Of a stretch of 62,279 nucleotides of DNA, positions 1,642-62,279 are shown piece after piece. Numbering within the stretch: position 1 is the stretch's first letter; every line of letters begins with the position of its first letter. Origin of the DNA: a virus; the IMG/VR virus record IMGVR_UViG_3300048774_000008, positions 1 through 62,279 of that record. One strand, 5' to 3'. Below the pieces are notes generated by a model. That model was not told the DNA's origin, did not search any database, and saw nothing but the letters and a program-made list of their open reading frames with translations. The translations under genes and the position numbers were made by a program.

Positions 1642-2603
1642 GCAATCCTTTTATGTGGCACAAAACGCGCCGCTTTTCGCAAATTCCGTGCAATCTCGTT
1701 CGCCACCATTTTGCGTAATTCTGCATCACGTACTTTTTCGCGCTTCGGTGCCGATTCATTGACAGCAACCGCAAGCACGGTAAGCTCTGTCAACTGGTCC
1801 GCAAAATCGCTGCCTTGAATGCCATCCGGCCATGCGATACCACACCCGATTTGCGCCGCAGCTAATTCGCCGTGTTCAATGCCTGGATTCTTGCCGATTT
1901 TGTCGAATGTCTTGTAATCGTTATCTGCTGCAATCAGCGCCAGGCCGTGAATATCAAGCCGCTTTGCGACTTCGACCATATTTCCACAATCGAACGTCAC
2001 TATTACGCGGCAATCAGGTACACACTGATAAACCGCTAGGCCAGTCGCCAAGCCCTCACACAGTGCCGTCATGGTGAATCTGGCCGACTGAATGATGTAG
2101 GAGCCACCCTTGACGCTTGCACCGCTCCAGAATCGTTTTACGCCATCTGGCGCGATTCGTTGCACGCTCATGATGTTGGAGCCGATCATCACTGGTACAA
2201 CGAGCCAGCCATCGGCATCGACACGCAAATTAGCGCACCCGACCATCGAAAGCATTTTCCCGGCCAGATAGGGGTGACTAAATCGAACCGGCTTGCATGA
2301 GTACCAGAATTTACGCGCCGCTTGCGTGGCTTGAATCAGGTTGCGCCGTGCTTCGTTTTGCTTAGCCTTTATTTGCGCTTGCGAGATAATCGGCGCCGGC
2401 GCGTCTGATCCTATTTTCCATGTTGCCGTCTCGGACATGGTGCTGTGATTTTGGTAAACGCCAGCGCGACCATCTGGAAAAAGTTTATAGCTGCCATTTA
2501 ATTTACGTGGATGATCAACCGTCTTGCAGCGATGCCATGCTCCGTCTGCGACGATATCCTTCGGCAATAACCCAGCGGCTTCTAGTGTTTGGCGGAAATC
2601 CAT
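1638..2603 (-). CDS. Toprim-domain DNA primase (phage/plasmid TraC/P4-like)
   Basis: Toprim signature LCEGLATG ... IAADNDY (conserved E and DxD). Sits immediately downstream of the helicase, with overlapping stop/start. Confidence 0.75.
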   Translation of the reverse strand: MDFRQTLEAAGLLPKDIVADGAWHRCKTVDHPRKLNGSYKLFPDGRAGVYQNHSTMSETATWKIGSDAPAPIISQAQIKAKQNEARRNLIQATQAARKFWYSCKPVRFSHPYLAGKMLSMVGCANLRVDADGWLVVPVMIGSNIMSVQRIAPDGVKRFWSGASVKGGSYIIQSARFTMTALCEGLATGLAVYQCVPDCRVIVTFDCGNMVEVAKRLDIHGLALIAADNDYKTFDKIGKNPGIEHGELAAAQIGCGIAWPDGIQGSDFADQLTELTVLAVAVNESAPKREKVRDAELRKMVANEIARNLRKAARFVPHKRIA

Positions 2604-4078
2604 TATGCGCGCCTCGCTTTTGCAAAGGCGATATTTCCTTGTTTGATTTTTCCGACTATTTCGCGAGTAGGAGCAACAGGGATTGTTTTTTCAAATTTTG
2701 CGACCGGAAATTTTCCGACGATCCGCATGTAATATCCCAATGCCTTGCGCCGCGCCGCGTCCAAATCATCGCCAGCAACCGACCTGGCATACCCGCAAAT
2801 TTGAGGCCATATCCGGCTTTCGACTGAAACATAATCGCCATTGTGCAAAAGCTCTTTTAGGGTTCCTGCCTCGTGCTGAATGCCGCTTGGTTTTTCTGGT
2901 TTATAGCCGCAGGAAGGGCAGATAAATGATTCGTGGATATGGTGACATTTTGGACATTTGACGGCTTTTTTTTCTTTCGGATCAGGTTTCTTTTTGTCTT
3001 TCTTTTTGCCATCATCAAGCTCGGATACGCCATACTCAAAAAAATCGGATACTTCATCCCAAAATCTTAGGCAATTTCCTGAATGGTCAAGAATTGTTGC
3101 CATCTCTTTTCCAGTTCCGATAGAGGTACGCAACACGCGCCCGATCATCTGGATATGCACATGCAAAGCCTTACGCAACGGGCGCGCCAGTATCAACACT
3201 TCAATGTCCGCAACATCGAACCCGCGCGTCAGGCTCTCGATGCTAATCAGCCCACGAATATAAGAATCTGGTTTACGGAACTCGGAAACAGTATCAGCCT
3301 TCTCATCGTCTGATTCGCGGTAAGTGTAAAGGGAAGTGACAATTCCAGCCGCCGCGAATTGCCGTTGTAATTCCGTTGCATGTGCGACATTGACTGCAAA
3401 GGCGATAAACTTTTTTTCGTTCCCATGCAACGTGTACTCTTTGACGCAATCGCCAACAATCGGCAATACTTTGCTAATCGTCTCCTGTTCATCGTACTCG
3501 CCAGCAGTAATTTTAACGCCGGTCATATCCGGCTCACTGGGCGCGAACACTTTAAACGGAACCAGCAATTTTTCCTGTATTAGTTGATTCGTCGTTGCTG
3601 CATTGATGACGATATCGAAGTATTTTCCAAGCGATTTTGTTAGCGGTGTTGCGGACAAGCCAACCGTGTAACAATCCCGCTTTGATATCCGATCAGTAAG
3701 CGCCTTCGGCAATACGTGCGCTTCGTCCGCCATAATCAGATTTACCTCCGGCCACTCGCGCCGGTGCAACGTCTGGATACTGCAAAGCTGGATATTTTCC
3801 CAAGGTTTCGAGCGCCAGTGATTCGATTGCATGACGCCGAATGGCAAATCGTATCTATCAAATCGCTCTCCGGTTTGCTCGATCAGCGAAAGTCGGTCAC
3901 AAATAAAAGCGCCGCGCTTCTTATTTTCAACAGTTTTATGGAGCATGGCAGTCGCAAGCTCTGTCTTGCCGAATCCGCATGGAGCTTGAAGCATCACGTT
4001 TTTATAGCCATCACGGAATGCTTGCTGCACTTTTTCAATCGCCGCTAGTTGAAGCGGTCTAAGGTCAAGATTAGCCAT
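2603..4078 (-). CDS. SF2 DEAD/DEAH-box DNA helicase with C-terminal zinc ribbon
   Basis: Walker A APCGFGKT, motif II MADEAH, motif III SATP, C-terminal CPKCHH..CPSCGY. Confidence 0.85.
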   Translation of the reverse strand: MANLDLRPLQLAAIEKVQQAFRDGYKNVMLQAPCGFGKTELATAMLHKTVENKKRGAFICDRLSLIEQTGERFDRYDLPFGVMQSNHWRSKPWENIQLCSIQTLHRREWPEVNLIMADEAHVLPKALTDRISKRDCYTVGLSATPLTKSLGKYFDIVINAATTNQLIQEKLLVPFKVFAPSEPDMTGVKITAGEYDEQETISKVLPIVGDCVKEYTLHGNEKKFIAFAVNVAHATELQRQFAAAGIVTSLYTYRESDDEKADTVSEFRKPDSYIRGLISIESLTRGFDVADIEVLILARPLRKALHVHIQMIGRVLRTSIGTGKEMATILDHSGNCLRFWDEVSDFFEYGVSELDDGKKKDKKKPDPKEKKAVKCPKCHHIHESFICPSCGYKPEKPSGIQHEAGTLKELLHNGDYVSVESRIWPQICGYARSVAGDDLDAARRKALGYYMRIVGKFPVAKFEKTIPVAPTREIVGKIKQGNIAFAKARRA

Positions 4079-10389: not shown

Positions 10390-12102
10390 ATGAAAAAAAT
10401 AACTTCAATTTCACCGGAGCAGGTCGGTAAATTTGCAGAATGGTCTAAAAAGTGGATTGAAATTGGACTATCCACAGAGCCTGCTGATTTTGATCTTGCG
10501 ACTGACGCTGCACTGCGTGCCTACAAACTCTGCAATCTGAACAAACCGATGATTATCCTGCGCATGGGATCGCCTTATGGCACAACGGTTGGCGGAGCTT
10601 ACGCATGGTTAATGTTGAAAGAACTTGAGAACCAAGTGGGGAACCAAGTGTGGAACCAAATGGGAAGCCAAGTGGGAAGCCAAGTGGAGAACCAAGTGGG
10701 GAACCAAGTGTGGAACCAAATGGGAAGCCAAGTGGGAAGCCAAGTGGGAAGCCAAGTGGAGAGCCAAGTGTGGAACCAAGTGTGGAGCCAAGTGTGGAAC
10801 CAAATGGGAAGCCAAGTGTGGAACCAAGTGGGAAGCCAAGTGTGGAACCAAGTGGGAAGCCAAGTGGAGAACCAAGTGGGGAACCAAGTGGGAAGCCAAG
10901 TGGGAAGCCAAGTGCGGAACCAAGTGCGGAACCAAGTGTGGAACCAAGTGGGGAGCCAAGTGCGGAGCCAAGTGTGGAACCAAGTGTGGAGCCAAGTGGA
11001 GAGCCAAGTGCGGAGCCAAGTGGGAAGCCAAGTGGGGATCCAAGTGGAGAACCAAGTGGGAAGCCAAGTGCGGAGCCAAGTGTGGAACCAAGTGGGAAGC
11101 CAAGTGGGGAACCAAGTGTGGAACCAAGTGTGGAGCCAAGTGGAGAGCCAAGTGCGGAGCCAAGTGGAGAGCCAAGTGTGGAGCCAAATGGGAAGCCAAG
11201 TGTGGAGCCAAGTGGGAAGCCAAGTGGGAAGCCAAGTGGAGAACCAAGTGGGAAGCCAAGTGTGGAACCAAGTGTGGAACCAAGTGGGGAGCCAAGTGCG
11301 GAACCAAGTGTGGAACCAAGTGTGGAGCCAAGTGGAGAGCCAAGTGCGGAGCCAAGTGGAGAGCCAAGTGGAGAGCCAGGCAAAGGCAGGTTTGAGTAAT
11401 TATCGCGGAGGCTCTATTTGGAATGCCGGATGGTGTGCTTATGTTTCATTTTTTCGCGACCAAATGCAATGGGAAGATTCATTACTTGAAAATTTCACGA
11501 TAGATGAAGACCTCGCAAAATCATGCGGGTGGGTATGGTGGCATGAAAATGTGCTGGCGATTAGTGACCGTCCAGAAATTTTAAATCGCGACGACGAAGG
11601 AAGATTGCACTGTGAAAATGGTCCGAGCATAGCCTATCGCGACGGCTGGTCTTTATATCATTTTCACGGTGTAACGGTTCCGCAATTAGTTATCGAATCA
11701 CCCGATCAGATAACCATTCAGATGATTGAATCAGAATCTAACGCAGAGGTCCGGCGCGTTATGATGGAACGGTATGGCTATGATCGGTACATTTTGGATT
11801 GCGATTCGGAGCTTGTGGATTCATGCCGACTAGACCACCCGATCATTGGGTTGCGTGATGCAAAATTGCGCGTTAAAAAAGTTTCGGACGATGAGCCGAT
11901 TGTTTATATCGACCTGCTCAATTCAACTCCTGAACCTGATGGCAGCGTAAAACGGTATTTGATGCGCGTTGATCCAAATGCTTACGGCGGAGATGCATCG
12001 ATGGTGTGCCAAGCAGCAGCGGCAAGCACCTGGCGCGAGTCGATTGACGGAGAACTTGTTTACAAAGATTGGCGTGATTATGCGCCCGTGTTTGAATCGT
12101 AA
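10390..12102 (+). CDS. Repeat protein: 79-aa N-domain, 62 tandem xxQV tetrapeptides, conserved C-terminal domain (DUF6745-like)
   Basis: 570-aa ORF. The C-terminal part ([13 protein letters not shown]...[22 protein letters not shown]......[20 protein letters not shown]) looks like a conserved uncharacterised domain. Confidence 0.7.
10627..11370 (+). repeat. 62 tandem 12-nt units ([G/W/E/R][N/S]Q[V/M] coding)
   Basis: Counted from the translated protein and the coordinates (744 nt / 12). Two forward and two reverse frames stay open, which produces four artefactual overlapping ORFs in the track. Confidence 0.95.
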
Positions 12103-27308: not shown

Positions 27309-27824
27309 TTAATACTCAATCGCCGCCGCAGCGATAAATAAAGCATCAACCTGTGCGCCAGTCCACCCAAGCGCAGAAGCAATAGCAGCAATCGTAGGAC
27401 TTGGCCGCGCAAAAGTTGTTGCCTTGGCCCAAGCAATCTGAGCAGTTACTGGAGCTGCTGCAATGACCGCTTCAACTGCTGACATATATCCTGCATTGGT
27501 GATAGCTATCTGCGCTTGTGCCGCAGTTACCACTTGAGGGATAAAGCCAATAGGAGCATTCCACTGCTGCGTCAGAACTCCGCTGATAAATATCGGTTGA
27601 GCTTCCACTGGCGCGTACTGGCAAGTTGGTGTATAGGTTGGCGGTGTCGTGGCCGCTGGCTCCACGAGTGTGTAACCTCCGACTGCTGCGGCTGTAGATG
27701 GGAACAGAGAAACCATATCCGTACCCGCAGGATAATTGGTATTGTTATTATCGAAAACGAAATCCGACCACCCATAGGGATATTTAATTAGCGTATTGCC
27801 GTTTTGTATTTTTGCGCATGACAT
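27309..27824 (-). CDS. Hypothetical protein, possible fibre-assembly/accessory protein
   Basis: 171-aa ORF after the fibre-like genes, with an Ala-rich C-terminal half. Confidence 0.4.
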   Translation of the reverse strand: MSCAKIQNGNTLIKYPYGWSDFVFDNNNTNYPAGTDMVSLFPSTAAAVGGYTLVEPAATTPPTYTPTCQYAPVEAQPIFISGVLTQQWNAPIGFIPQVVTAAQAQIAITNAGYMSAVEAVIAAAPVTAQIAWAKATTFARPSPTIAAIASALGWTGAQVDALFIAAAAIEY

Positions 27825-27833
27825 GATTATCCT

Positions 27834-28877
27834 TTAATTTCCCGAGACGCCAGACCAAGTCTGACTTGACGGCAGCGTTGATGCGACCCAAGTGCTACCG
27901 CCGTTTGATGAGTGAGCAGCGGCTGTTGTTCCATTAGAAACTGCTGCACAATTAAGACCAGAACAGGATACGCCAGACCAAGTCTGACTTGACGGCAGCG
28001 TTGATGCGACCCAAGTGCTACCGCCGTTTGATGAGTAAGCAGCTGCTGTTGTTCCATTAGAAACTGCTGCACAATTAAGACCAGAACAGGATACGCCAGA
28101 CCAAGTCTGACTTGACGGCAGCGTTGATGCGACCCAAGTGCTACCGCCGTTTGATGAGTGAGCAGCGGCTGTTCCCGGGAATCCTGATATACCTGAAACT
28201 GCTGCACAATTCAGACCAGAACATGAGACACCAGTCCAAAAGCCACTTGTCGGTAACGTTGATGCGACCCAGGTGCTGCCGCCGTTTGATGAGTAAGCAG
28301 CGGCTGTTGTTCCATTAGAAACTGCTGCACAATTAAGACCAGAACAGGATACGCCAGTCCAAGCATAACTTGTCGGCAGCGTTGATGCGACCCAGGTGCT
28401 ACCGCCGTTTGATGAGTAAGCAGCGGCTGTTGTCGTCGCGTATGCGCCTGCAACTGCTGCACAATTCAGACCAGAACATGAGACACCAGTCCAAGCATGA
28501 CTTGTCGGCAGCGTTGATGCGACCCAGGTGCTACCGCCGTTTGATGAGTGAGCAGCGGCTGTTGTTCCCGGTGATGATGAGCTTGTTACAACCGCTGCAC
28601 AATTCAACCCAGAACAGGATACGCCAGACCAAATCTGACTTGTCGGCAGCGTTGATGCGACCCAGGTGCTACCGCCGTTTGATGAGTAAGCAGCTGCTGT
28701 TGTTCCATTAGCAACTGCTGCAAAACAATTTCCAGAAATTGCACATATGTATGTTTGCCCAAATTGTCCAAACCCCTGCGCCGATAGTGCGCCTCTCGTA
28801 GAAAGCAGTTGCGCTTCAACAAATGGAGTCCAGATCAGAGCTGATATGAGCAGCCAAATTTGAATTAGTTTTTTCAT
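27834..28877 (-). CDS. Secreted seven-bladed BNR/Asp-box-like beta-propeller protein
   Basis: Signal peptide MKKLIQIWLLISALIWTPFVEAQ. Seven repeats of about 40 aa, TAAAYSSNGGSTWVASTLP..W.GVSCSGLNCAAV, containing the Asp-box-like SxxGGxTW. Confidence 0.65.
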   Translation of the reverse strand: MKKLIQIWLLISALIWTPFVEAQLLSTRGALSAQGFGQFGQTYICAISGNCFAAVANGTTAAAYSSNGGSTWVASTLPTSQIWSGVSCSGLNCAAVVTSSSSPGTTAAAHSSNGGSTWVASTLPTSHAWTGVSCSGLNCAAVAGAYATTTAAAYSSNGGSTWVASTLPTSYAWTGVSCSGLNCAAVSNGTTAAAYSSNGGSTWVASTLPTSGFWTGVSCSGLNCAAVSGISGFPGTAAAHSSNGGSTWVASTLPSSQTWSGVSCSGLNCAAVSNGTTAAAYSSNGGSTWVASTLPSSQTWSGVSCSGLNCAAVSNGTTAAAHSSNGGSTWVASTLPSSQTWSGVSGN

Positions 28878-47337: not shown

Positions 47338-48032
47338 GATAAACCCCAGATCGTTCCATATTGACCGGCTATCTGCAAATAACGCCGACCGAAAGGGGTT
47401 TTAAGTTGTTGCAAATTAGCCAGTGTCAATCCCTTCAATTGCTCGGGAACATTCAATGATTCAGATGTCGCAACATCTTCACTCGATTCTATTGTGCCGC
47501 CGACAAATGAATTTATCCCAAACTGCTTGCGAGCCACGGAAAAGAATATTTCCGATGCCTTCCCACCTCCAACATAAGCCCCTGGATTGCTCGTAATAGG
47601 ATAGGTAAATGTGTTTGCTCCAGTTACCGCGATTTGAACCGGTTGCGGGCTTCCTGCTGGGCCTGCTTGACTGTTATATGTCTGCGGATTGATTCCGGAC
47701 ATCATAATCATGTCGCCCGTTGCAAAACTGAAATCTGCCGCAGTGGTAACAGTTGCAACGCCAGAAGACCATGTAATTCCGCTAATCATTACATTTTGAT
47801 CATTGGCGAAATTGATTAAATTGTCGCCGGCTAGGTTATATACAGCCAAGTCATACAAACTCGGCCCTTCGTATGTTTGCGATGGTACGCATACTTTTTT
47901 GATTGCCGGATTAACGATGTCCTGCGCTATTGCAAGCGCCATAGGAATAACGGGAGAATCAATAGGCAATGCGCTCACCGGTATCTGCATTTGATACATT
48001 ATGAAGTCCAGAAAACCGGCGAGCGTAACCAT
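47334..48032 (-). CDS. Hypothetical structural-module protein (232 aa)
   Basis: ATGA-coupled ORF. Confidence 0.55.
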   Translation of the reverse strand: MVTLAGFLDFIMYQMQIPVSALPIDSPVIPMALAIAQDIVNPAIKKVCVPSQTYEGPSLYDLAVYNLAGDNLINFANDQNVMISGITWSSGVATVTTAADFSFATGDMIMMSGINPQTYNSQAGPAGSPQPVQIAVTGANTFTYPITSNPGAYVGGGKASEIFFSVARKQFGINSFVGGTIESSEDVATSESLNVPEQLKGLTLANLQQLKTPFGRRYLQIAGQYGTIWGLS

Positions 48033-48034
48033 GC

Positions 48035-48541
48035 CTATCCTTCCTTGCGTGGACGGCCACGACTGCGCGATGCTGGATTTTCAACGGTGATTGTTTCGTT
48101 GACTTGCGTATCGACGCCTTTTTGTGCCTGTTCAACAATGCCGACTTCAAAGTTCTGAAGCGTTGCGTCTGAATTTTGCGCCGATCTATTCAGAATATCG
48201 TCCATCGCAAGTGTGGCGATTTTTCGATGCTCCTGCGAGGCGTGCGCCATTACCTCATCATTATGATCGAATGTCGTTTGCAGGCGATCCAACGTAATCG
48301 GCTTATCGTACTGATAGCATAGGCCGACAAATTCCTTGCTGCGATCGATCTCGCTAACTGGAATTAAGCCATAAATCTTATGCTGGTCTACAATATATTC
48401 GTGATCTTGACGAGTGCCTTTCTCGAATACGGATTCCTGTCCACCATGACGAATAACGGTAGTGAAATACTTCTTATTTTCACCAACCCAATAATTAAAC
48501 TCGAATGTTTGCTTCGAGCAATTTCCAATATATAAAGCCAT
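48035..48541 (-). CDS. Hypothetical structural-module protein (168 aa)
   Basis: ORF downstream of the capsid gene with a basic C-terminus. Confidence 0.55.
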   Translation of the reverse strand: MALYIGNCSKQTFEFNYWVGENKKYFTTVIRHGGQESVFEKGTRQDHEYIVDQHKIYGLIPVSEIDRSKEFVGLCYQYDKPITLDRLQTTFDHNDEVMAHASQEHRKIATLAMDDILNRSAQNSDATLQNFEVGIVEQAQKGVDTQVNETITVENPASRSRGRPRKEG

Positions 48542-48663
48542 TTGATTCCCTTTTCAAAATCCCTGAAAGGAGGGCGAGAAAACGAGCAGGGAAACTCGCT
48601 TATCAGCCGCGCTGGCCTATTCTCGCCGCAAGTGTTACAACAACGTGAAGATTAACGTGAAGA

Positions 48664-49683
48664 TTAGAAGCTGGCACTGATTACCGTCAGAACTTCAGGA
48701 CGGACAGACCAGCCCGGAGTAGTGCGCAACTCAGATACCACGTCAACAGCACCGGCAGGTAATGGCGCAACAATTTCACGGGGAGCGGCCATATCCATAT
48801 ACATCAAGTTGCACGCATCGAGACCTGGAGTCAGTTTTGCGAACTCATTGGTATTGATGCCTTCCATCGACGGCTTCTTGATTTCTGGAATGGTGATGAT
48901 AATGACATCTGTACCGCCTACTCCCTTCCCGATCAGTGTATCGTCGGCTCCCCATGTGATATCGTCATCGTTCCATCCCAGCACATCATCGACAAGACCG
49001 CGCGTCGATTTAGATCCAGCGCCTTCGCGTTGAAATTGCGTCAGTTGCACAATGCCCTGATAGCTTATTTGCGCAAGAATACGCTGCGTAGTCAACACGG
49101 AGATTTTCGCCGACATACCGATTTGCATCGTGCGAACCTTGATTGCGCTGATTTGCTGCAACAAGAAAAAGGCAAGCTGGCCGTTATCGTATGTGCTGAT
49201 GGTCGTATTGCCGTTCGAGTCGGCCGGCAAGCTTGTTGCTGTTGCGCCATTGGTATTCAACAGGCCTTCGCCGCCGATAGGATTAAATCCGTAAAGCAAT
49301 CCATTCCGTAGTTGCTGGAAAATGCCTTGACGCATTGCCAAGCGCTGACCTTCGACAATCGATGCCCCGGTACGCCCGAAAGCAGCAGTATCGTGATGAT
49401 CATATTCAGCGCGGGTGCGGATCAGATACGTCGGTGTGCTGATTTCATTGTATGTGATCGTGCAGGACGGCAGACTGTTGTACGCGGCCTGCCCGACCGA
49501 TACCTCGGAGCGGACATCGTAGCGCTTGATGTAGACAGCCAAATCTTCAGCGCCCAATCGCACTTGCGGTTTGCCATCGTATAAAGTTTCGAATGCGCCG
49601 GAAGCCTGCTGATATTGCAGCAGGATTTCTGGAACAACGTAGTTCGGGTGAACACGTAATACAGTGGGCATAACGTTAGCCAT
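48664..49683 (-). CDS. Major capsid protein (DUF2184-like, HK97-fold family)
   Basis: 339 aa. Position after the scaffold gene. The N-terminal pattern ..LQYQQASGAFE.L....P.V.L...DL.VYIK is reminiscent of DUF2184 capsid proteins. Confidence 0.65.
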   Translation of the reverse strand: MANVMPTVLRVHPNYVVPEILLQYQQASGAFETLYDGKPQVRLGAEDLAVYIKRYDVRSEVSVGQAAYNSLPSCTITYNEISTPTYLIRTRAEYDHHDTAAFGRTGASIVEGQRLAMRQGIFQQLRNGLLYGFNPIGGEGLLNTNGATATSLPADSNGNTTISTYDNGQLAFFLLQQISAIKVRTMQIGMSAKISVLTTQRILAQISYQGIVQLTQFQREGAGSKSTRGLVDDVLGWNDDDITWGADDTLIGKGVGGTDVIIITIPEIKKPSMEGINTNEFAKLTPGLDACNLMYMDMAAPREIVAPLPAGAVDVVSELRTTPGWSVRPEVLTVISASF

Positions 49684-56765: not shown

Positions 56766-57356
56766 ATGTTCCCCGATCAAGAATCGGCGCGGCTCTATCT
56801 CGAAAAACGCCTTTGGCCTAACGGTTGCCGCTGTCCAGTATGCGGCATTGGCGACCGCGTGACGGCGCGCAAAAATGGTTTCTACCGCTGCAACCAATGT
56901 AGAGAGGATTTCACCGTTCGCACTGGAACGATTTTTGAACGTTCGCACGTTCCTCTACATAAATGGCTTTACGCGATGTACCTGGTCACCACGGCACGTA
57001 AGGGCATTTCATCATTACAACTGAGCAAGGAAATAGACGTTACGCAAAAATCTGCATGGTTCATGCTACAGCGTATTCGTGAAGCCTGTGGCACTGATCC
57101 AACGATTTTAAGTGGAGTTGTCGAAGTCGATGAAACCTACATCGGCGGCAAAGAATCCAGCAAGCACGAATCGAAAAAGCTAAAGGCTGGCCGTGGCGCT
57201 GTCGGCAAGACCGCCGTCATGGGCATGCGTGAGCGCGGCGGTAGAGTCAATGCCGTTGATCTGATTGCAGATAAGATACTGGCATTTAAACCAAAACCAA
57301 AGAGCGCCCCGGCCAAAAAACGTGCGAAAGCGCGTAAGAAACTGGCTAGGGAATGA
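56766..57356 (+). pseudogene. IS1595-family transposase remnant (N-terminal zinc ribbon + HTH, DDE domain truncated)
   Basis: CPVCG....Y.C..C...FTVRTGTIFE.S.VPL.KW..A....T.....ISS.QL......T.KSAWFM..RIR......L.G.VEVDETYIGG is the IS1595 N-region. The ORF ends about 45 aa into the catalytic domain with an unrelated Lys/Ala-rich tail. Confidence 0.65.
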
Positions 57357-57844: not shown

Positions 57845-57882
57845 GAATTCATCAGCAGTACAAACCCAACCGGAGAATGAAA

Positions 57883-58098
57883 ATGAGCACAAATCAAACA
57901 GCAGCATTTAATGCAGGCGTAGAATTTGCAAAATACCTGAACGATAGTCCTAATGCACGTCAAAACTGGAGTCAACTCTCCCGCGCCGACGGGATCCCAG
58001 AGGGAGATTACGCCGAACTAACTCGCGAATTTGGAGAATGCAATTCCGACATGGAGAATCAATTCCGTGCTGGATTCAATAAAACATTATGCAAATAA
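57883..58098 (+). CDS. Small protein, paralog A (71 aa)
   Basis: MSTNQTAAFNAGVEFAKYLNDSPNARQNW..; GGAGA 7 nt upstream of the ATG at 57883. Confidence 0.6.
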   Translation: MSTNQTAAFNAGVEFAKYLNDSPNARQNWSQLSRADGIPEGDYAELTREFGECNSDMENQFRAGFNKTLCK

Positions 58099-58154
58099 AT
58101 AGTTGATCCACCCGACGCCGAATTCACAATTTTTTAAATCAACCGGAGAATAAA

Positions 58155-58409
58155 ATGAAAACTTTCACAAAACGCTATAGTTTAACAATCAATGGTTGCT
58201 CGAATTCATTTGGCTGTGCCGAAATAATAGCCAAACGATTGTGCGCGTGGACTGGCATCTCGTACACCGAGGCACTGGCAAAAGGCAATGCTGACTTCTC
58301 TCGCAAACTCGCGAGAAATGCGATGATGTACGTTCTCGATTTGTATAAAAAACAAAATGATGATCTGCAAATTGAAATTGTGCAGAGTGGTTATATTCCT
58401 AATAAATAA
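58155..58409 (+). CDS. Small protein (84 aa)
   Basis: ORF with the same upstream module, ACAATTTTTTAAATCAACCGGAGAAT. Confidence 0.55.
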   Translation: MKTFTKRYSLTINGCSNSFGCAEIIAKRLCAWTGISYTEALAKGNADFSRKLARNAMMYVLDLYKKQNDDLQIEIVQSGYIPNK

Positions 58410-58455
58410 ACCACCTGGCATGGATACAATTTTTTAAATCAACCGGAGAATGAAA

Positions 58456-58677
58456 ATGAACACGAACACAAATCAAACAGCAGCATTTAATGCAGGCGTA
58501 GAATTTGCAAAATTCCTGAACGATAACCCTAATGAACGTCAAAACTGGGGTCAACTCTCCCGCGAGGACGGAATCCCAGAGGGGGATTACGCCGAACTAA
58601 CTCGCGAATTTGGAGAATGCAATTCCGACATGGAGAATCAATTCCGTGCTGGATTCAATAAAACATTATGCAAATAA
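58456..58677 (+). CDS. Small protein, paralog B (73 aa)
   Basis: About 90 percent identical to paralog A. The last ~110 nt are identical. Confidence 0.6.
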   Translation: MNTNTNQTAAFNAGVEFAKFLNDNPNERQNWGQLSREDGIPEGDYAELTREFGECNSDMENQFRAGFNKTLCK

Positions 58678-58789
58678 ATAGGGAATTATATATTTAATTC
58701 CCTGTGCAAAATAAATCAAAAAACACTTGCAATTGCGCCCATCGGCACAACGCCAACCGCGCCTCGGGATCAGGGGCTGGAGAAATAAA

Positions 58790-59131
58790 ATGCTTACTCA
58801 AGATCAGCGCGATACCTTCAGACTGGCTCTCGCATCGTTCAATGACTATACGGTCAAAAGTGTTGGGGAACTCGATATCGATAACATGTTGTCGGATGAC
58901 CAGATTGTCGAAACACGTGACACGCTAGAAAACTTTTTCAAAGCTCATGGCCGTAAGTTAAATCGACGGACTGGCGAACGGCCAGAAGTGCCATTTGAAC
59001 AGGAAGCCACTTTGCTCGGCGTAATTTACAAATGGGACGACGTTCAAGCGCGCAAGGGCGCACGCCGTGGGACCCTTTATGTGATGGACTTTGGCACTGT
59101 TCGCGCCGTATTTTTCGACGGCGAGGCATGA
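58790..59131 (+). CDS. Small protein (113 aa)
   Basis: ATG 58790 preceded by GGAGAAA. Confidence 0.55.
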   Translation: MLTQDQRDTFRLALASFNDYTVKSVGELDIDNMLSDDQIVETRDTLENFFKAHGRKLNRRTGERPEVPFEQEATLLGVIYKWDDVQARKGARRGTLYVMDFGTVRAVFFDGEA

Positions 59132-59213
59132 GCAACCACCCCGACGGATGCACCCGGCATTTTGGGAGCTTTTTTGCATCAAAATACCGGCCTTCGGGCC
59201 ACAGGAGAAAATC

Positions 59214-59408
59214 ATGTCTCAAACCGCAACCGGCGCATACATCGCCCAAATCATCGATCTAATCGACAAAATCAATACCCTGAAAGCTGCCGCCGAGGAT
59301 CATTTCAACACGCATCCTGACTCAATCAACTGGGGACACGTCGGCACTTTGACCAAAATCAATTCAGATCTGTGCGTTATTATGCAATTTGCAGGGGTAA
59401 AAGTATGA
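59214..59408 (+). CDS. Small protein (64 aa)
   Basis: ATG 59214 preceded by AGGAGAAA. Confidence 0.5.
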   Translation: MSQTATGAYIAQIIDLIDKINTLKAAAEDHFNTHPDSINWGHVGTLTKINSDLCVIMQFAGVKV

Positions 59409-59563
59409 CTGCCAAATCAGGTAAGCAGCGCGCCCAAGAATTGCGTAATCGCCGCATCGACGCTGGCCTGGTCAGGCTCGATATTTACGCGCCACGCAGT
59501 CTGCACGCTGCCATCCGCCAATATGCTAAATCTTTAATTTCCCTACAGAAAGTCGAAAAATGA
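59405..59563 (+). CDS. Small basic protein (52 aa), possible RHH-type regulator
   Basis: MTAKSGKQRAQELRNRRIDAGLVRLDIYAPRSLHAAIRQYAKSL, with a strand-helix-helix-like pattern. ATGA-coupled on both sides. Confidence 0.4.
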   Translation: MTAKSGKQRAQELRNRRIDAGLVRLDIYAPRSLHAAIRQYAKSLISLQKVEK

Positions 59564-59703
59564 ACCTGCCATCATCGATTAAACTGTCTCAAACCCTCCG
59601 GCGCCAGATGGGCGATTTTAACTATGTCCGGTATTGCCGCAATCTCGGCGTTGATTTTGAGACCGTCTACACGCTCATGTTCGGCAGGATACCGCGCATT
59701 TAA
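59560..59703 (+). CDS. Small protein (47 aa)
   Basis: MNLPSSIKLSQTLRRQMGDFNYVRYCRNLGVDFETVYTLMFGRIPRI. Its last 20 nt belong to the repeated leader-like element of the CRISPR region. Below the ORF-track cutoff. Confidence 0.35.
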   Translation: MNLPSSIKLSQTLRRQMGDFNYVRYCRNLGVDFETVYTLMFGRIPRI

Positions 59704-59716
59704 AAGCATGCTTTTT

Positions 59717-59849
59717 CGTGGGGAACACAGGCTCAAACTCAACCGATGGGCGGCCCATCCGGTTCATCCCCACGCTCGTGGGGAACACGCCTGGTGCTAC
59801 GCTCTGCACCGACGAACACGCGGTTCATCCCCACGCTCGTGGGGAACAC
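59717..59849 (-). CRISPR. Mini-CRISPR array B: 2 full type I-E-like repeats, 2 spacers, truncated terminal repeat
   Basis: Minus sense: GTGTTCCCCACGAGCGTGGGGATGAACCG at 59849-59821 and 59788-59760. Spacers are 59820-59789 (32 nt) and 59759-59729 (31 nt). The terminal copy keeps only GTGTTCCCCACG (59728-59717). Confidence 0.75.
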
Positions 59850-59887
59850 CTGGTGCAGGATACCGCGCATTTAAAAGCATGCTTTTT

Positions 59888-59959
59888 CGTGGGGAACACA
59901 GGCTCAAACTCAACCGATGGGCGGCCCATCCGGTTCATCCCCACGCTCGTGGGGAACAC
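59888..59959 (-). CRISPR. Mini-CRISPR array A: 1 full type I-E-like repeat, 1 spacer, truncated terminal repeat
   Basis: Repeat 59959-59931. Spacer 59930-59900 is identical to the distal spacer of array B. Truncated repeat 59899-59888. Confidence 0.75.
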
Positions 59960-60169
59960 CTGGTGCAGGATACCGCGCATTTAAAAGCATGCTTTTATAA
60001 ATTCGATGGCTAATCCGCTAACAGTGATTCGTGTTGCTCACCTTCACGCGGCGGCATACTCTATGGTGCCACATCCATGTGGCATTGCGGTTTATCAATC
60101 CTACGATGGGCTATCCGCAGATTTTTCGAGTACGGCTGTCCAGCCATCGAAATCTGTGGTGCATAATGC

Positions 60170-60192
60170 AAAAAGCCCCGTTCTCGCGGGGC
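60170..60192 (-). terminator. Rho-independent terminator
   Basis: Minus strand: GCCCCG-CGAGAA-CGGGGC followed by TTTTTG. Confidence 0.75.
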
Positions 60193-60494
60193 ATCCTTTG
60201 TCTACTGTTTGCCCATCGTGGGCGCTCTGGCGGTATTGGTTCCGAGTACAGCGTCTCGGGGAGTTTGTCTTGCAACATAGCAGCTCGGCCGGCTTTGTAA
60301 TCCGGCTTCATACGCCTGTTAGTTATCCTGCTCTGTATCATGGTCGGCTACGGTCCGGTCGCTCCTGCGCCAATTTTGCCGGTACTACCATATTTTCGAG
60401 CGAACGAAGCTATCAAGCTTCGGGGCTTCAGGTAAGCCGCTGCCCTGCTTTCGCTCAAATTACCTACAAGAACATCACTACAGATCAAGCAGGT
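60170..60494 (-). ncRNA. Candidate ~325-nt structured RNA (late-promoter leader transcript, function unknown)
   Basis: Bounded by a near-consensus promoter and an intrinsic terminator. No credible minus-strand ORF. Many local stems, e.g. GAGCGAA..TTCGCTC enclosing CGAAGC-TTGATA-GCTTCG, GCCGG-9 nt-CCGGC, CCGAG-8 nt-CTCGG, GCCC-ACGAT-GGGC. Confidence 0.45.
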
Positions 60495-60500
60495 TATGCC

Positions 60501-60529
60501 ATGCTACATGGACAATTTAGGCGTGTCAA
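60501..60529 (-). promoter_or_regulatory. Strong sigma70-type promoter (candidate late promoter, PR-prime analogue)
   Basis: Minus strand: TTGACA (60529-60524), 17 nt, TAGCAT (60506-60501), about 120 nt downstream of the Q-like stop. Confidence 0.6.
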
Positions 60530-60540
60530 TACATTTGTCG

Positions 60541-60655
60541 TTGACATCCTCCCCGCCCTAAAGGACGGGGATTCCTACAGCTAGCAGCGCATGTCCGCGC
60601 TATCCATCCTCCCCCTGAACGGGGAGGATTTTCGCGCAAAGCCCTGTTAAAAATC
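60541..60655 (+). repeat. 115-bp perfect direct repeat, copy 1 (three hairpins, the last a plus-strand intrinsic terminator)
   Basis: Identical to 61242-61356. Hairpins are TCCCCG..CGGGGA, AGCGC..GCGCT, and ATCCTCCCC-CTGAAC-GGGGAGGAT followed by TTTT. Confidence 0.95.
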
Positions 60656-61228
60656 CATATCATTTGATAGTTTTTTCATGGAAACATCTGCGCACCGTGC
60701 CGCCATCGCGTTTAGCACCTCAATCATGTCTAAAACGTAATCGCGCACTTCTTTTCTGCACAGTATCGGCTTCGTGCCGGTGCCGCGGCAGGCGGGGCAT
60801 GGTTCATCAGAGAGTATTGGCGTTCCAGCTAATGCTAGGTGCGTTACGCCGGTCGCTAGGTTCATCTTTCCGGTGCAAATAGGACATTTATCGTTTAGCC
60901 AGTGCTTTAGAGAGAGATCGGCGATTTTTCCGGTATCCGTTTCTTTAGGCCATTTTCGACCCGCAGACTTGAATAATACGATTCCCGTCCATTTTACAAG
61001 CAACGGATTGTAACTGGTCGCGTCGTTTGCGTATTTCACGCGAAATAACAAATTACCGATCCCCGCGCCTTCCGCAAATGTTGGGATGATGGGCTTATCG
61101 TTAATCCAGCCGGATGCGCCGCTGCCAATGGCTACTGCTGCCAATGGCTCGGTATTGTGGTGAAATTCATCATCGCGCAATTCTGTCGCCTGCACCGATC
61201 TTGCATACCGATCAACTATTCCCATCAC
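60647..61228 (-). CDS. Lambda-Q-like antiterminator candidate (zinc-finger protein)
   Basis: CPICTGK...22 aa...CPACRGTG parallels the CRDCHGTG...CGRCKGVG pair of lambda Q. Similar size (193 aa). Position between the nin-type genes and the late promoter/late genes. Confidence 0.4.
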   Translation of the reverse strand: MMGIVDRYARSVQATELRDDEFHHNTEPLAAVAIGSGASGWINDKPIIPTFAEGAGIGNLLFRVKYANDATSYNPLLVKWTGIVLFKSAGRKWPKETDTGKIADLSLKHWLNDKCPICTGKMNLATGVTHLALAGTPILSDEPCPACRGTGTKPILCRKEVRDYVLDMIEVLNAMAARCADVSMKKLSNDMDF

Positions 61229-61241
61229 CCCCCCCTTTTTT

Positions 61242-61356
61242 TTGACATCCTCCCCGCCCTAAAGGACGGGGATTCCTACAGCTAGCAGCGCATGTCCGCG
61301 CTATCCATCCTCCCCCTGAACGGGGAGGATTTTCGCGCAAAGCCCTGTTAAAAATC
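61242..61356 (+). repeat. 115-bp perfect direct repeat, copy 2
   Basis: Identical to 60541-60655. Preceded by a C8T8 homopolymer junction (61229-61244). Confidence 0.95.
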
Positions 61357-61374
61357 GATCATGCTTGCGCTTGC

Positions 61375-61795: not shown

Positions 61796-62279
61796 TCAAT
61801 CCTCAATCAGTTCTGGCATATCAAACCAGTGCGCAATCAGGTTGCAGATTCCAAGGTACGATTTTCCGATCTTGGAATCTGCGCCGTGCTTCTCATTGAC
61901 GGCAGCGCGGAATTTAATGAGGTCGCCCTGAAAGCATCCTCGCTTCAGTTCTAGTCCGTCTTTTGTCCGATAAACAGTCAGCGTGCCGTTTTTGCTGCCG
62001 ACTCCTGAATAGATCTGAATGTCGGCACGTTTTTGCACCTGCGCATTGCCGGACACCCACACATCGCCGGACACCCACACATCGCCGGACACCTGCGCAT
62101 TGCCGAACACCTGCGCATTGCCGAACACCTGCGCATTGCCGGACACCTGCGCATTGTCGGACACCTGCGCATTGCCGAACACCCACACATCGCCGGACAC
62201 CTGCGCATTGCCGAACACCTGCGCATTGCCGAACACCTGCGCATTGCCGGACACCTGCGCATTGTCGGACACCTGCGCA
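61796..62279 (-). CDS. Hexapeptide-repeat protein, C-terminal part (ORF enters from the window end)
   Basis: The frame is open to the last base of the window. Repeats VSGNAQ/VFGNAQ/VSGDVW, then a globular tail ..RADIQIYSGVGSKNGTLTVYRTKDGLELKRGCFQGDLIKFRAAVNEKHG.. The GTG start in the ORF track is probably internal. Confidence 0.7.
   Translation of the reverse strand, partial: AQVSDNAQVSGNAQVFGNAQVFGNAQVSGDVWVFGNAQVSDNAQVSGNAQVFGNAQVFGNAQVSGDVWVSGDVWVSGNAQVQKRADIQIYSGVGSKNGTLTVYRTKDGLELKRGCFQGDLIKFRAAVNEKHGADSKIGKSYLGICNLIAHWFDMPELIED

Follow-up and report, generated by a model that had tools for sequence, protein, structure and literature searches.

Close to the end of the IMG/VR virus record IMGVR_UViG_3300048774_000008, a stretch of 62,279 nucleotides that was analysed over its full length and is called the window below, lies a small CRISPR array (short palindromic repeats in a cluster, regularly interspaced) at positions 59684-59996. 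The window is a tailed-phage genome with genes for a portal, large and small terminase, major capsid protein, tail fibres, endolysin, NinB, NinG, ERF and SSB. It has no close relatives among deposited phages, and its portal is ~50% identical to the portals of phages of Gammaproteobacteria. By its structure the element is a virus-borne, leaderless and Cas-less type I-E mini-array, and comparison with near-identical relatives shows it to be an optional cassette of this phage lineage.

The guide RNA sense of the array is the minus strand, and its parts are given here in plus-strand order. Upstream lies a gene for a protein of 47 residues (ORF47; 59560-59703, plus strand), whose family is confined to this phage lineage. 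Its final codons and stop fall inside a 32-bp segment, X (GCAGGATACCGCGCATTTAAAAGCATGCTTTT; first copy 59684-59715), which is native phage sequence made up of the end of ORF47 and a palindrome. In relatives with an empty site, X is followed directly by ATAAATTCG. In the window it is followed by a truncated terminal repeat, the first 13 nt of the repeat (59716-59728, minus; GTGTTCCCCACGA), which is cut within the loop and leaves no repeat similarity beyond. Then come a first copy of the spacer S1 (31 nt; 59729-59759, minus), an intact type I-E repeat R identified by exact match and fold (59760-59788, minus), the canonical 32-nt spacer S2 flanked by two intact repeats (59789-59820, minus) and the second intact repeat (59821-59849, minus). 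A pentanucleotide junction, CTGGT, joins this unit to a second copy of X (59850-59886). A second truncated repeat of 13 nt (59887-59899, minus), a second S1 (59900-59930, minus) and the third intact repeat (59931-59959, minus) are recognised by sequence match, and a further CTGGT with a third copy of X (59960-59996) leads back into native phage sequence at ATAAATTCG.

An exact search of the whole window finds the 29-mer CGGTTCATCCCCACGCTCGTGGGGAACAC in three plus-strand copies, starting at 59760, 59821 and 59931 (spacings of 61 and 110 nt), and no further copy at up to three mismatches, with a chance expectation of 0. The first 12 nt of its minus-strand form, GTGTTCCCCACG, occur five times where 0.17 would be expected, all on the minus strand and within the region. 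The palindrome AAAAGCATGCTTTT is found at 59702, 59873 and 59983 only, and a perfect duplication of 105 bp makes 59684-59788 identical to 59855-59959. The array holds just two distinct spacers, S1 twice and S2 once. In these points the preliminary description, made from the letters of the DNA without database searches, holds: the three perfect repeats, the duplication, the 31-nt and 32-nt spacers and the palindrome unique to the site are where it placed them. It was right to count two truncated repeats, which measure 13 nt and not the 12 nt it gave, and its period of 61 nt applies to R-S2-R, with the stretch from R over S1 to the truncated repeat having a period of 60 nt. It also spoke of arrays in the plural. 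Instead, the window allele is one cassette (truncated repeat-S1-R-S2-R) together with a tandem copy that lacks S2-R.

That the 29-mer is a true CRISPR repeat of type I-E is shown by bacterial genomes. In minus-strand form, GTGTTCCCCACGAGCGTGGGGATGAACCG, it is matched exactly (29/29) in 13 stretches (L001-L013) from 11 contigs of bacterial metagenome-assembled genomes (MAGs), assigned to Methylobacter, Sulfuricella, Burkholderiales/Betaproteobacteria and Cellvibrionaceae. The larger of these stretches are arrays with 33-53 repeats, a period of 61 nt and spacers of 32 nt, and genes for Cas1 and the I-E-specific Cas2 (PF09707) lie upstream of the array leaders. One MAG (L009) carries a complete cas3-cse1-cse2-cas7-cas5-cas6e-cas1-cas2 operon beside the same repeat. 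The phage repeat shows the pattern of the I-E family, 28-29 nt with GTGTTCCCC at the start, a stem-loop and ATGAACCG at the end, and its predicted fold is a stem of 7 bp capped by a tetraloop (-12.9 kcal/mol). No CRISPR-DR family of Rfam scores above threshold on it, a null result that is uninformative because this repeat family is not modelled there; its identity was settled by exact-match searches instead. The type I-E assignment suggested by the preliminary description is thereby borne out, as is its choice of the minus strand as the functional sense, the minus-strand form being the one in the MAG arrays; the bacterial genomes with this repeat beside cas genes, which it proposed to look for, do exist.

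The phage itself contributes no Cas protein. PADLOC and Pfam searches over 90 open reading frames (ORFs) and a tblastx comparison of the host cas loci with the window agree on this, in line with what had been concluded from the translations. PADLOC gave only weak matches to the Cas3 helicase (E about 1e-4), which we ascribe to a generic superfamily 2 helicase at 2603-4078. Among 25 of the 29 Pfam families listed for the window there is no Cas family, and the tblastx matches consist of the array itself and one marginal match elsewhere (47580-47723, E 3.5e-4).

Placed beside the chromosomal arrays L001-L013, the phage element shares the identical 29-nt repeat, the 61-nt period, the 32-nt spacer length and a degenerate or truncated repeat at the trailer end. 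It is a trailer-end fragment of a genuine type I-E array, consisting of the truncated terminal repeat, S1, R, S2 and R. The MAG arrays differ from it in their 33-53 repeats, in adjoining cas1-cas2 or full operons and in a conserved leader, with the common motifs GCTCTTTAACAA and GGTAGA/GGTGGA and an end in ...AGT or ...GGT. None of these leader motifs occurs within 59500-60500, and the phage copy has neither the cas genes nor any of the 244 MAG spacers. The 37-nt sequence next to the repeats that was at first described as leader-like is the junction CTGGT plus the 32-bp copy of X. We reject it as a leader; what has been duplicated here is coding sequence of the phage together with the palindrome, without any MAG-leader motif or promoter-like site, and the segment marks a recombination junction.

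Relatives of the phage provide a view of the same site in other genomes. Exact-protein look-ups of the flanking genes yielded eight short contigs from other samples that cover it (a ninth, L024, stops upstream), with flanks 98-99.8% identical to the window. Three of them (L014, L018 and L023) have an empty site, in which X runs directly into ATAAATTCG. L019 is likewise empty and carries a 17-bp tandem duplication of the palindrome (AAAAGCATGCTTTTATA twice, at 1160-1200 of that contig) exactly at the insertion point, which corresponds to 59702-59999 of the window. L016, from an independent sample, has the duplicated allele of the window as far as the contig extends, L021 ends at the palindrome, and L015 bears a different array. 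Since near-identical relatives show empty, duplicated, identical and different alleles, the array is a polymorphic, optional cassette flanked by 32-bp direct copies of phage sequence. Its junction with the phage is common to two haplotypes defined by single-nucleotide polymorphisms (SNPs). The palindrome behaves as a rearrangement hot spot, because the duplication in L019 sits at the insertion point and L018 has an internal deletion within ORF47. Searches for further alleles with a 21-mer of X found nothing in IMG/VR or in the JGI contig collection, and ORF47 has no homologues outside this phage lineage.

The sister allele in L015 has the same junction between the truncated repeat and X as the window, followed by a 32-nt spacer S1' (CAAATTGCCGCCCATCGGTTGAGTTTGAGCCT), three intact repeats and other spacers, spA, spB and spC. 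Of these, spC matches the window at 29 of 32 positions (protospacer 27434-27465, plus strand), next to an AAG at 27431-27433. AAG is the canonical protospacer-adjacent motif (PAM) of type I-E systems. The protospacer lies in the conserved C-terminal part of a gene of the tail-fibre region (27309-27824, minus), and the mismatches include seed position 1. In L015 the spC region (923-1177) continues into 223 nt of DNA with 58% GC that contain no repeat and no phage homology; this tail has no protein homologue, Pfam domain or IMG/VR match, and a candidate degenerate repeat in it agrees at only 16 of 29 positions and was judged to be due to chance. L015 may be a true recombinant or an assembly chimera joined through a shared 31-33 nt, and if it is chimeric or a hybrid of phage and host array, spC may be a host spacer. 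In either case, the match of spC at 29 of 32 positions with an AAG PAM indicates that a type I-E system with this exact repeat has sampled this phage family.

S1 and S1' differ only at the repeat-proximal end, where CAAATTG has been replaced by GATGGG, a perfect inverted repeat of the downstream GCCCATC. With the change the folding energy is -18.3 kcal/mol, as against -12.2 kcal/mol for the S1' form, and the repeat's final 5 nt, which form the 5' handle of the CRISPR RNA (crRNA), become paired together with the seed. This looks like a templated quasi-palindrome change. On comparison of the two alleles S1' appears as the ancestral form and S1 as a sequence that is no longer a normal guide, because the predicted hairpin pairs both handle and seed. 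The doubt voiced early on, that the near-palindrome in S1 might mean it is no conventional spacer, was apt: L015 has a normal 32-nt S1', and the palindrome is the derived state.

How could such a fragment have entered the phage? Its most likely source is a host array, from which it would have been copied or transferred by recombination; the junctions would be illegitimate, and 32 bp would have been duplicated locally. The cassette would then have been duplicated in tandem via the 32-bp copies, and one copy would have lost S2-R. The ends of the cassette are abrupt, with 0-2 nt of microhomology. The repeat-proximal 7 nt of the 37-nt segment (CTGGTGC) are identical to nt 3-9 of S2, for which chance would account with a probability of roughly 3e-4; this identity suggests that the join was illegitimate or made through microhomology, and that it lies within a second copy of S2. 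Taken together with the 17-bp duplication in L019, it is the reason why template switching at the palindrome is favoured on the sequence.

A second route deserves attention, namely recombination between a spacer and its protospacer. The 32 nt abutting the leader-most repeat consist, in crRNA sense, of 27 nt of X plus ACCAG, and AAG stands before these 27 nt in the phage genome. This geometry would be the expected footprint of a host spacer that recombined with its phage protospacer, at a chance probability of about 0.02. Recombination between phages and CRISPR loci via such homology was reportedly found by Varble et al. in 2019 (Nat Microbiol), in work on staphylococcal type III loci and transduction. 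As such recombination would leave it, the window has 27 nt of phage sequence with an AAG PAM in the phage in the position next to the repeat, and the counterpart in L015 is a full phage-matching spacer; the 7-nt identity with S2, however, favours a microhomology or template-switch junction here. Off-target integration by Cas1-Cas2 was also considered and set aside, since the inserts measure 139 and 78 bp between duplications of 32 bp, and not ~33 bp between duplications of ~28 bp. The junctions may be the natural footprint of the birth of a leaderless phage mini-array, by template switching or by spacer-protospacer recombination with a host array at a palindromic hot spot.

What, if anything, does the array do? 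We favour, tentatively and with a probability of roughly 0.42, that it would provide a competitor or decoy RNA for the Cas6e and Cascade of a host, with S2 as a possible guide. Having no cas genes, the phage would depend for any activity on Cas proteins supplied by a host that uses the same repeat. Minus-strand transcripts would arise from terminator read-through or an unrecognised promoter, and host Cas6e would cut them at the three intact hairpins. The products would be one canonical 61-nt crRNA carrying S2 and two copies of a defective S1 species, with its 5' handle and seed locked in the S1 hairpin and its 3' Cas6e hairpin missing. With the phage genome replicating, such RNAs would rival the crRNAs of the host for Cas6e and Cascade, in the manner of RNA-based anti-CRISPRs (Racrs) or of the competition by non-targeting crRNAs in type I-F, and S2 may in addition direct Cascade-Cas3 at a competitor.

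The anatomy of the array is the reason for this preference: three intact Cas6e hairpins are present, both tandem copies preserve R together with a hairpin-blocked S1 that has no Cas6e hairpin on its 3' side, and there is one canonical R-S2-R. There is also precedent. Competition from solitary repeats, and even from non-targeting crRNAs, has been shown to inhibit interference, decoys trap Cas6 and Cas7, and two type I-E Racrs are active (PMC10651486); the competition by non-targeting crRNAs was shown experimentally for type I-F in the same study. Loop variants of the phage repeat appear as type I-E solitary repeat units (SRUs) in its supplement (PMC10651486). In IMG/VR, loop variants of the repeat family occur in 24 stretches of viral contigs, including solitary repeats and one-spacer mini-arrays, and several of these stand immediately after the stop codon of an ORF in the same sense.

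A number of observations weigh against a competitor or decoy function, and expression is foremost among them. From the array to a GC-rich hairpin at 60175-60192, which is terminator-like on both strands and has TTTTTG on the minus strand, no sigma-70-like site on the minus strand reaches at least 9/12 (59997-60175); upstream matches in crRNA sense within that stretch are 8/12 at best. The nearest promoter-like sites on the minus strand, 60529 and 60416, lie beyond the hairpin and upstream of it, which places the hairpin between them and the array, and the array ~180 nt downstream of a strong minus-strand terminator (60192-60175). The neighbouring operon (57877-59703) is on the plus strand and the crRNA sense of the array is antisense to it, so read-through from the operon would yield antisense repeats; the same-sense ORF found directly before several viral SRUs of this family is missing here. 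On these grounds minus-strand transcription of the array appears doubtful. The neighbouring small ORFs (64, 52, 47, 73/75, 84 and 134 aa) have no informative match in Pfam, PHROG or PDB sequences, and no acr or aca homologue was found among them. The array is present in only three of seven informative alleles. All six intact repeats across the two array alleles are perfect, which might be taken as a sign of selection; we reject it as evidence for that, because the flanks differ by only about 0-2% and no repeat changes would be expected anyway. Finally, neither S1 nor S2 has a target in the 13 MAG loci, the fragments of the relatives or the window, which only spC matches.

Searches for targets were extended well beyond these sequences. 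A concatenate of S1, S1', S2, spA, spB and spC gave matches at chance level only (E at least 3) in INPHARED and none in PLSDB. Patterns for S2, S1/S1' and spC found no credible target in IMG/VR, and the pattern for S2 found no match in the JGI contig collection. S1, S1' and S2 have no PAM-proximal match of at least 9 nt in the 13 MAG loci with the repeat, one of which spans cas3 to the array, although these loci may not belong to the host of the phage and cover only a minority of cse1/cas3 promoters. Conversely, the 244 spacers extracted from the 13 MAG loci, and likewise 65 spacers of IMG/VR loci whose repeat belongs to this family, gave no match to the window or its relatives above chance level.

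Almost as plausible as a competitor or decoy RNA is that the array is an inert scar. Template switching or illegitimate recombination during infection would have left a copied piece of host array in the phage genome where a fragile palindrome lies, and the piece would be neutral, often lost and the source of no functional RNA. Much of what was described above fits this view. Among near-identical genomes the hot spot has empty alleles, the 17-bp duplication of L019 and the ORF47 deletion of L018; the junctions are abrupt, with hardly any microhomology, and the identity of CTGGTGC with part of S2 suits a junction in a second S2 copy. The array is a minority allele that lacks a leader and a promoter, has a terminator upstream in crRNA sense and runs opposite to the neighbouring operon, and it has a truncated terminal repeat and a mutated S1. 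What speaks for more than a scar is that the duplicated allele was recovered again in the independent sample L016, that two SNP haplotypes have the same array-bearing junction, that six of six intact repeats are perfect in two alleles, and that phage-borne repeats of this class were active when tested (PMC10651486).

An alternative that we regard as unlikely is the delivery of guides in conflicts between phages, in which S2, or spA, spB and spC in L015, would be given to the Cascade-Cas3 of the host against co-infecting phages or mobile elements. Mini-array guides against related viruses are known (PMC6858448, PMC11656645); the mechanism has been shown for the archaeal viruses SPV1/SPV2 (Saccharolobus portogloboviruses; Medvedeva et al. 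2019, PMC6858448) and is inferred for many phage mini-arrays. Most mini-array spacers target related viruses according to a 2024 review (PMC11656645). R-S2-R is canonical, with 29-nt repeats around a 32-nt spacer. The match of spC, with its AAG PAM and mismatches that include seed position 1, is what one would expect of a spacer that targets relatives and spares its own carrier. The spacers found at one genomic position differ between alleles, which implies turnover, as in SPV1/SPV2 (PMC6858448). Set against this, S2 is without a match in the window, the fragments of the relatives, INPHARED, PLSDB, IMG/VR and the JGI collection; L015 may be a chimera or a hybrid of phage and host array, with spC lacking a preceding repeat and followed by unrelated DNA of 58% GC; and guides would face the same problem of expression as a decoy.

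Considerably less probable still is that the array works in antisense, transcribed only as a plus-strand 3' extension of the ORF47 operon with three perfect complements of the repeat that would pair with the precursor crRNA of the host, so as to block its processing or lead it astray, or would sponge Cas6e via the same stem. Both strands of the repeat form the same stem because it is self-complementary; the reverse complement folds with -12.8 kcal/mol, and differences are confined to the loop and flanks. The nearest upstream genes (57877-59703) are on the plus strand, the stop codon of ORF47 lies within X, and the next terminator-like hairpin on the plus strand is the one at 60175-60192, past the array. 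On the other side, the literature examined holds no precedent, stable hairpins are slow to pair, plus-strand read-through is without support here, and several viral SRUs follow directly on same-sense ORFs, so that the sense strand appears to be used there. If true, antisense RNA of this kind would disable a type I-E system by an RNA anti-CRISPR mechanism that differs from both Racr and Cracr.

The weakest proposal, a Cracr-type mimic in which S1 and/or S2 would be partly complementary to a host cas promoter or a CRISPR-guarding toxin and reprogram Cascade to silence immunity, we consider very improbable: the succession of intact repeat, spacer-like segment and degenerate or truncated repeat does resemble mini-arrays for crRNA-like RNAs, and viral I-E Cracr arrays with 2-3 spacers have been described (bioRxiv 10.1101/2024.10.29.618823), but S1, S1' and S2 lack any run of at least 9 PAM-proximal nt in the 13 MAG loci with the repeat, S1 and S2 have full length (31-32 nt) against 21-24 nt for the spacer-like segments of the described I-E example, and the S1 seed is not the same between alleles.

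Seen against known systems, the element resembles the leaderless mini-arrays of phages, which were reportedly surveyed by Faure et al. in 2019, in that it has no leader. With SPV1/SPV2 and the mini-arrays of phages it has in common that it lacks cas genes, carries 1-2 spacers, uses repeats which cellular arrays have in identical form and lies in an intergenic position; close relatives, too, have different spacers at the same position, and one allele has a spacer against the same virus family (PMC6858448). In contrast to the promoter-bearing leader of SPV1/SPV2, none is present on the phage array here. It further departs from virus-borne mini-arrays in that no target was found for the spacers of the window, that the cassette sits between 32-bp direct copies of phage sequence, is tandemly duplicated and has one spacer remodelled to a hairpin, and that several near-identical genomes are without it. 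Its membership in the class of virus-borne mini-arrays and solitary repeats, as first proposed, is nevertheless supported (PMC11656645, PMC10651486, PMC6858448).

Racrs and SRUs are likewise phage-borne repeats of host type without cas genes, and the same I-E repeat family is listed in the SRU tables; R plus S1 plus the truncated repeat amounts effectively to one Cas6e hairpin with a non-guide RNA (PMC10651486). Yet the element falls outside the SRU definition, because less than 100 bp separate its full repeats, which the rule of SRUFinder treats as an array and not as an SRU. It also differs in that the 250 bp next to it on the crRNA-sense side revealed no promoter and no neighbouring acr gene was recognised. 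Cracr arrays are similar as multi-unit arrays on phages with intact and degenerate repeats, including I-E examples with 2-3 spacers and crRNA-like repressors of host cas promoters (bioRxiv 10.1101/2024.10.29.618823). The partial match that defines them, with CreR/CreA or with the promoter of a cas or toxin gene, did not turn up here in the 13 MAG loci, which may not represent the host, and the spacers here are of full length.

Several other features of the genome came to light. The ~530 nt between the array and a first miniature element (60006-60540) are 99.5% conserved in relatives and have a frameshifting indel between the window and L014 near 60245; conservation combined with tolerance of a frameshift suggests a non-coding, structured region, within which the terminator-like hairpin at 60175-60192 lies. 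Two 118-nt copies (60541-60658 and 61242-61359, 99% identical) flank an ORF at 60647-61228, and together they look like a miniature element derived from IS200/IS605. The copies have weak Rfam matches to HgcC (RF00062, E 8e-4 and 0.017) and to sot0042, which we take to be TnpB-associated RNA families. L014 (2025-3670) carries a complete IS605-type unit (TnpB of 356 aa and Y1 transposase of 122 aa) that starts with the same end sequence, and L018 and L019 have the unoccupied site, where ...ACATTTGTCGT meets TAAAAATCC.

Upstream of the array-bearing operon, two paralogous plus-strand ORFs of 73 and 75 aa without a family match lie ~570 nt apart (57877-58098 and 58450-58677); L014 and L015 align to both copies at 92-96%. 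The terminase genes are separated from the small-gene region by a fragment of an IS1595-family transposase (56766-57356, plus; 196 aa with a zinc ribbon and the first part of the DDE domain). The int-alpA RNA motif (RF02996) is found at 48561-48627 on the minus strand and scores 46.3 bits, above its gathering score of 35.8; its neighbours are the major capsid gene (48664-49683) on one side and the next ORF of the structural module (48035-48541) on the other, an unexpected place going by the name of the motif. Next to the gene with the spC protospacer, a tail-fibre region (27844-28722, inside ORF 27834-28877) contains tandem repeats with periods of 123-381 nt and 83-88% matches. A highly repetitive coding stretch at 10632-11378 consists of 62 copies of the 12-nt repeat CCAAGTGGGGAG and lies inside ORF 10390-12102, which also has a DUF6745 domain.

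Both ends of the contig consist of the 18-nt tandem repeat ACCTGCGCATTGCCGGAC, with 18 copies at 1-330 and 14 at 62036-62279, numbers that may be assembly estimates. As the same repeat occurs at both ends, the contig is probably circular or complete. The repeat encodes a protein with GNAQVS-type repeats (ORF 61796-62272, minus), and the Pfam matches of the window include the YdcK beta-solenoid repeat.

That a phage carries such an array is in itself no surprise, because phage mini-arrays and solitary repeats have already been catalogued in large numbers and some are proven anti-CRISPRs or weapons between viruses. What this locus adds is a snapshot of a population of near-identical genomes in which the site is empty, bears a small duplication or holds one of two array alleles; these two have one junction in common and different spacers. 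How a leaderless phage mini-array is born, turned over and lost can be traced directly here, and the locus offers a natural pair of array-plus and array-minus phages that could be used to test whether the cassette is of benefit against type I-E hosts.

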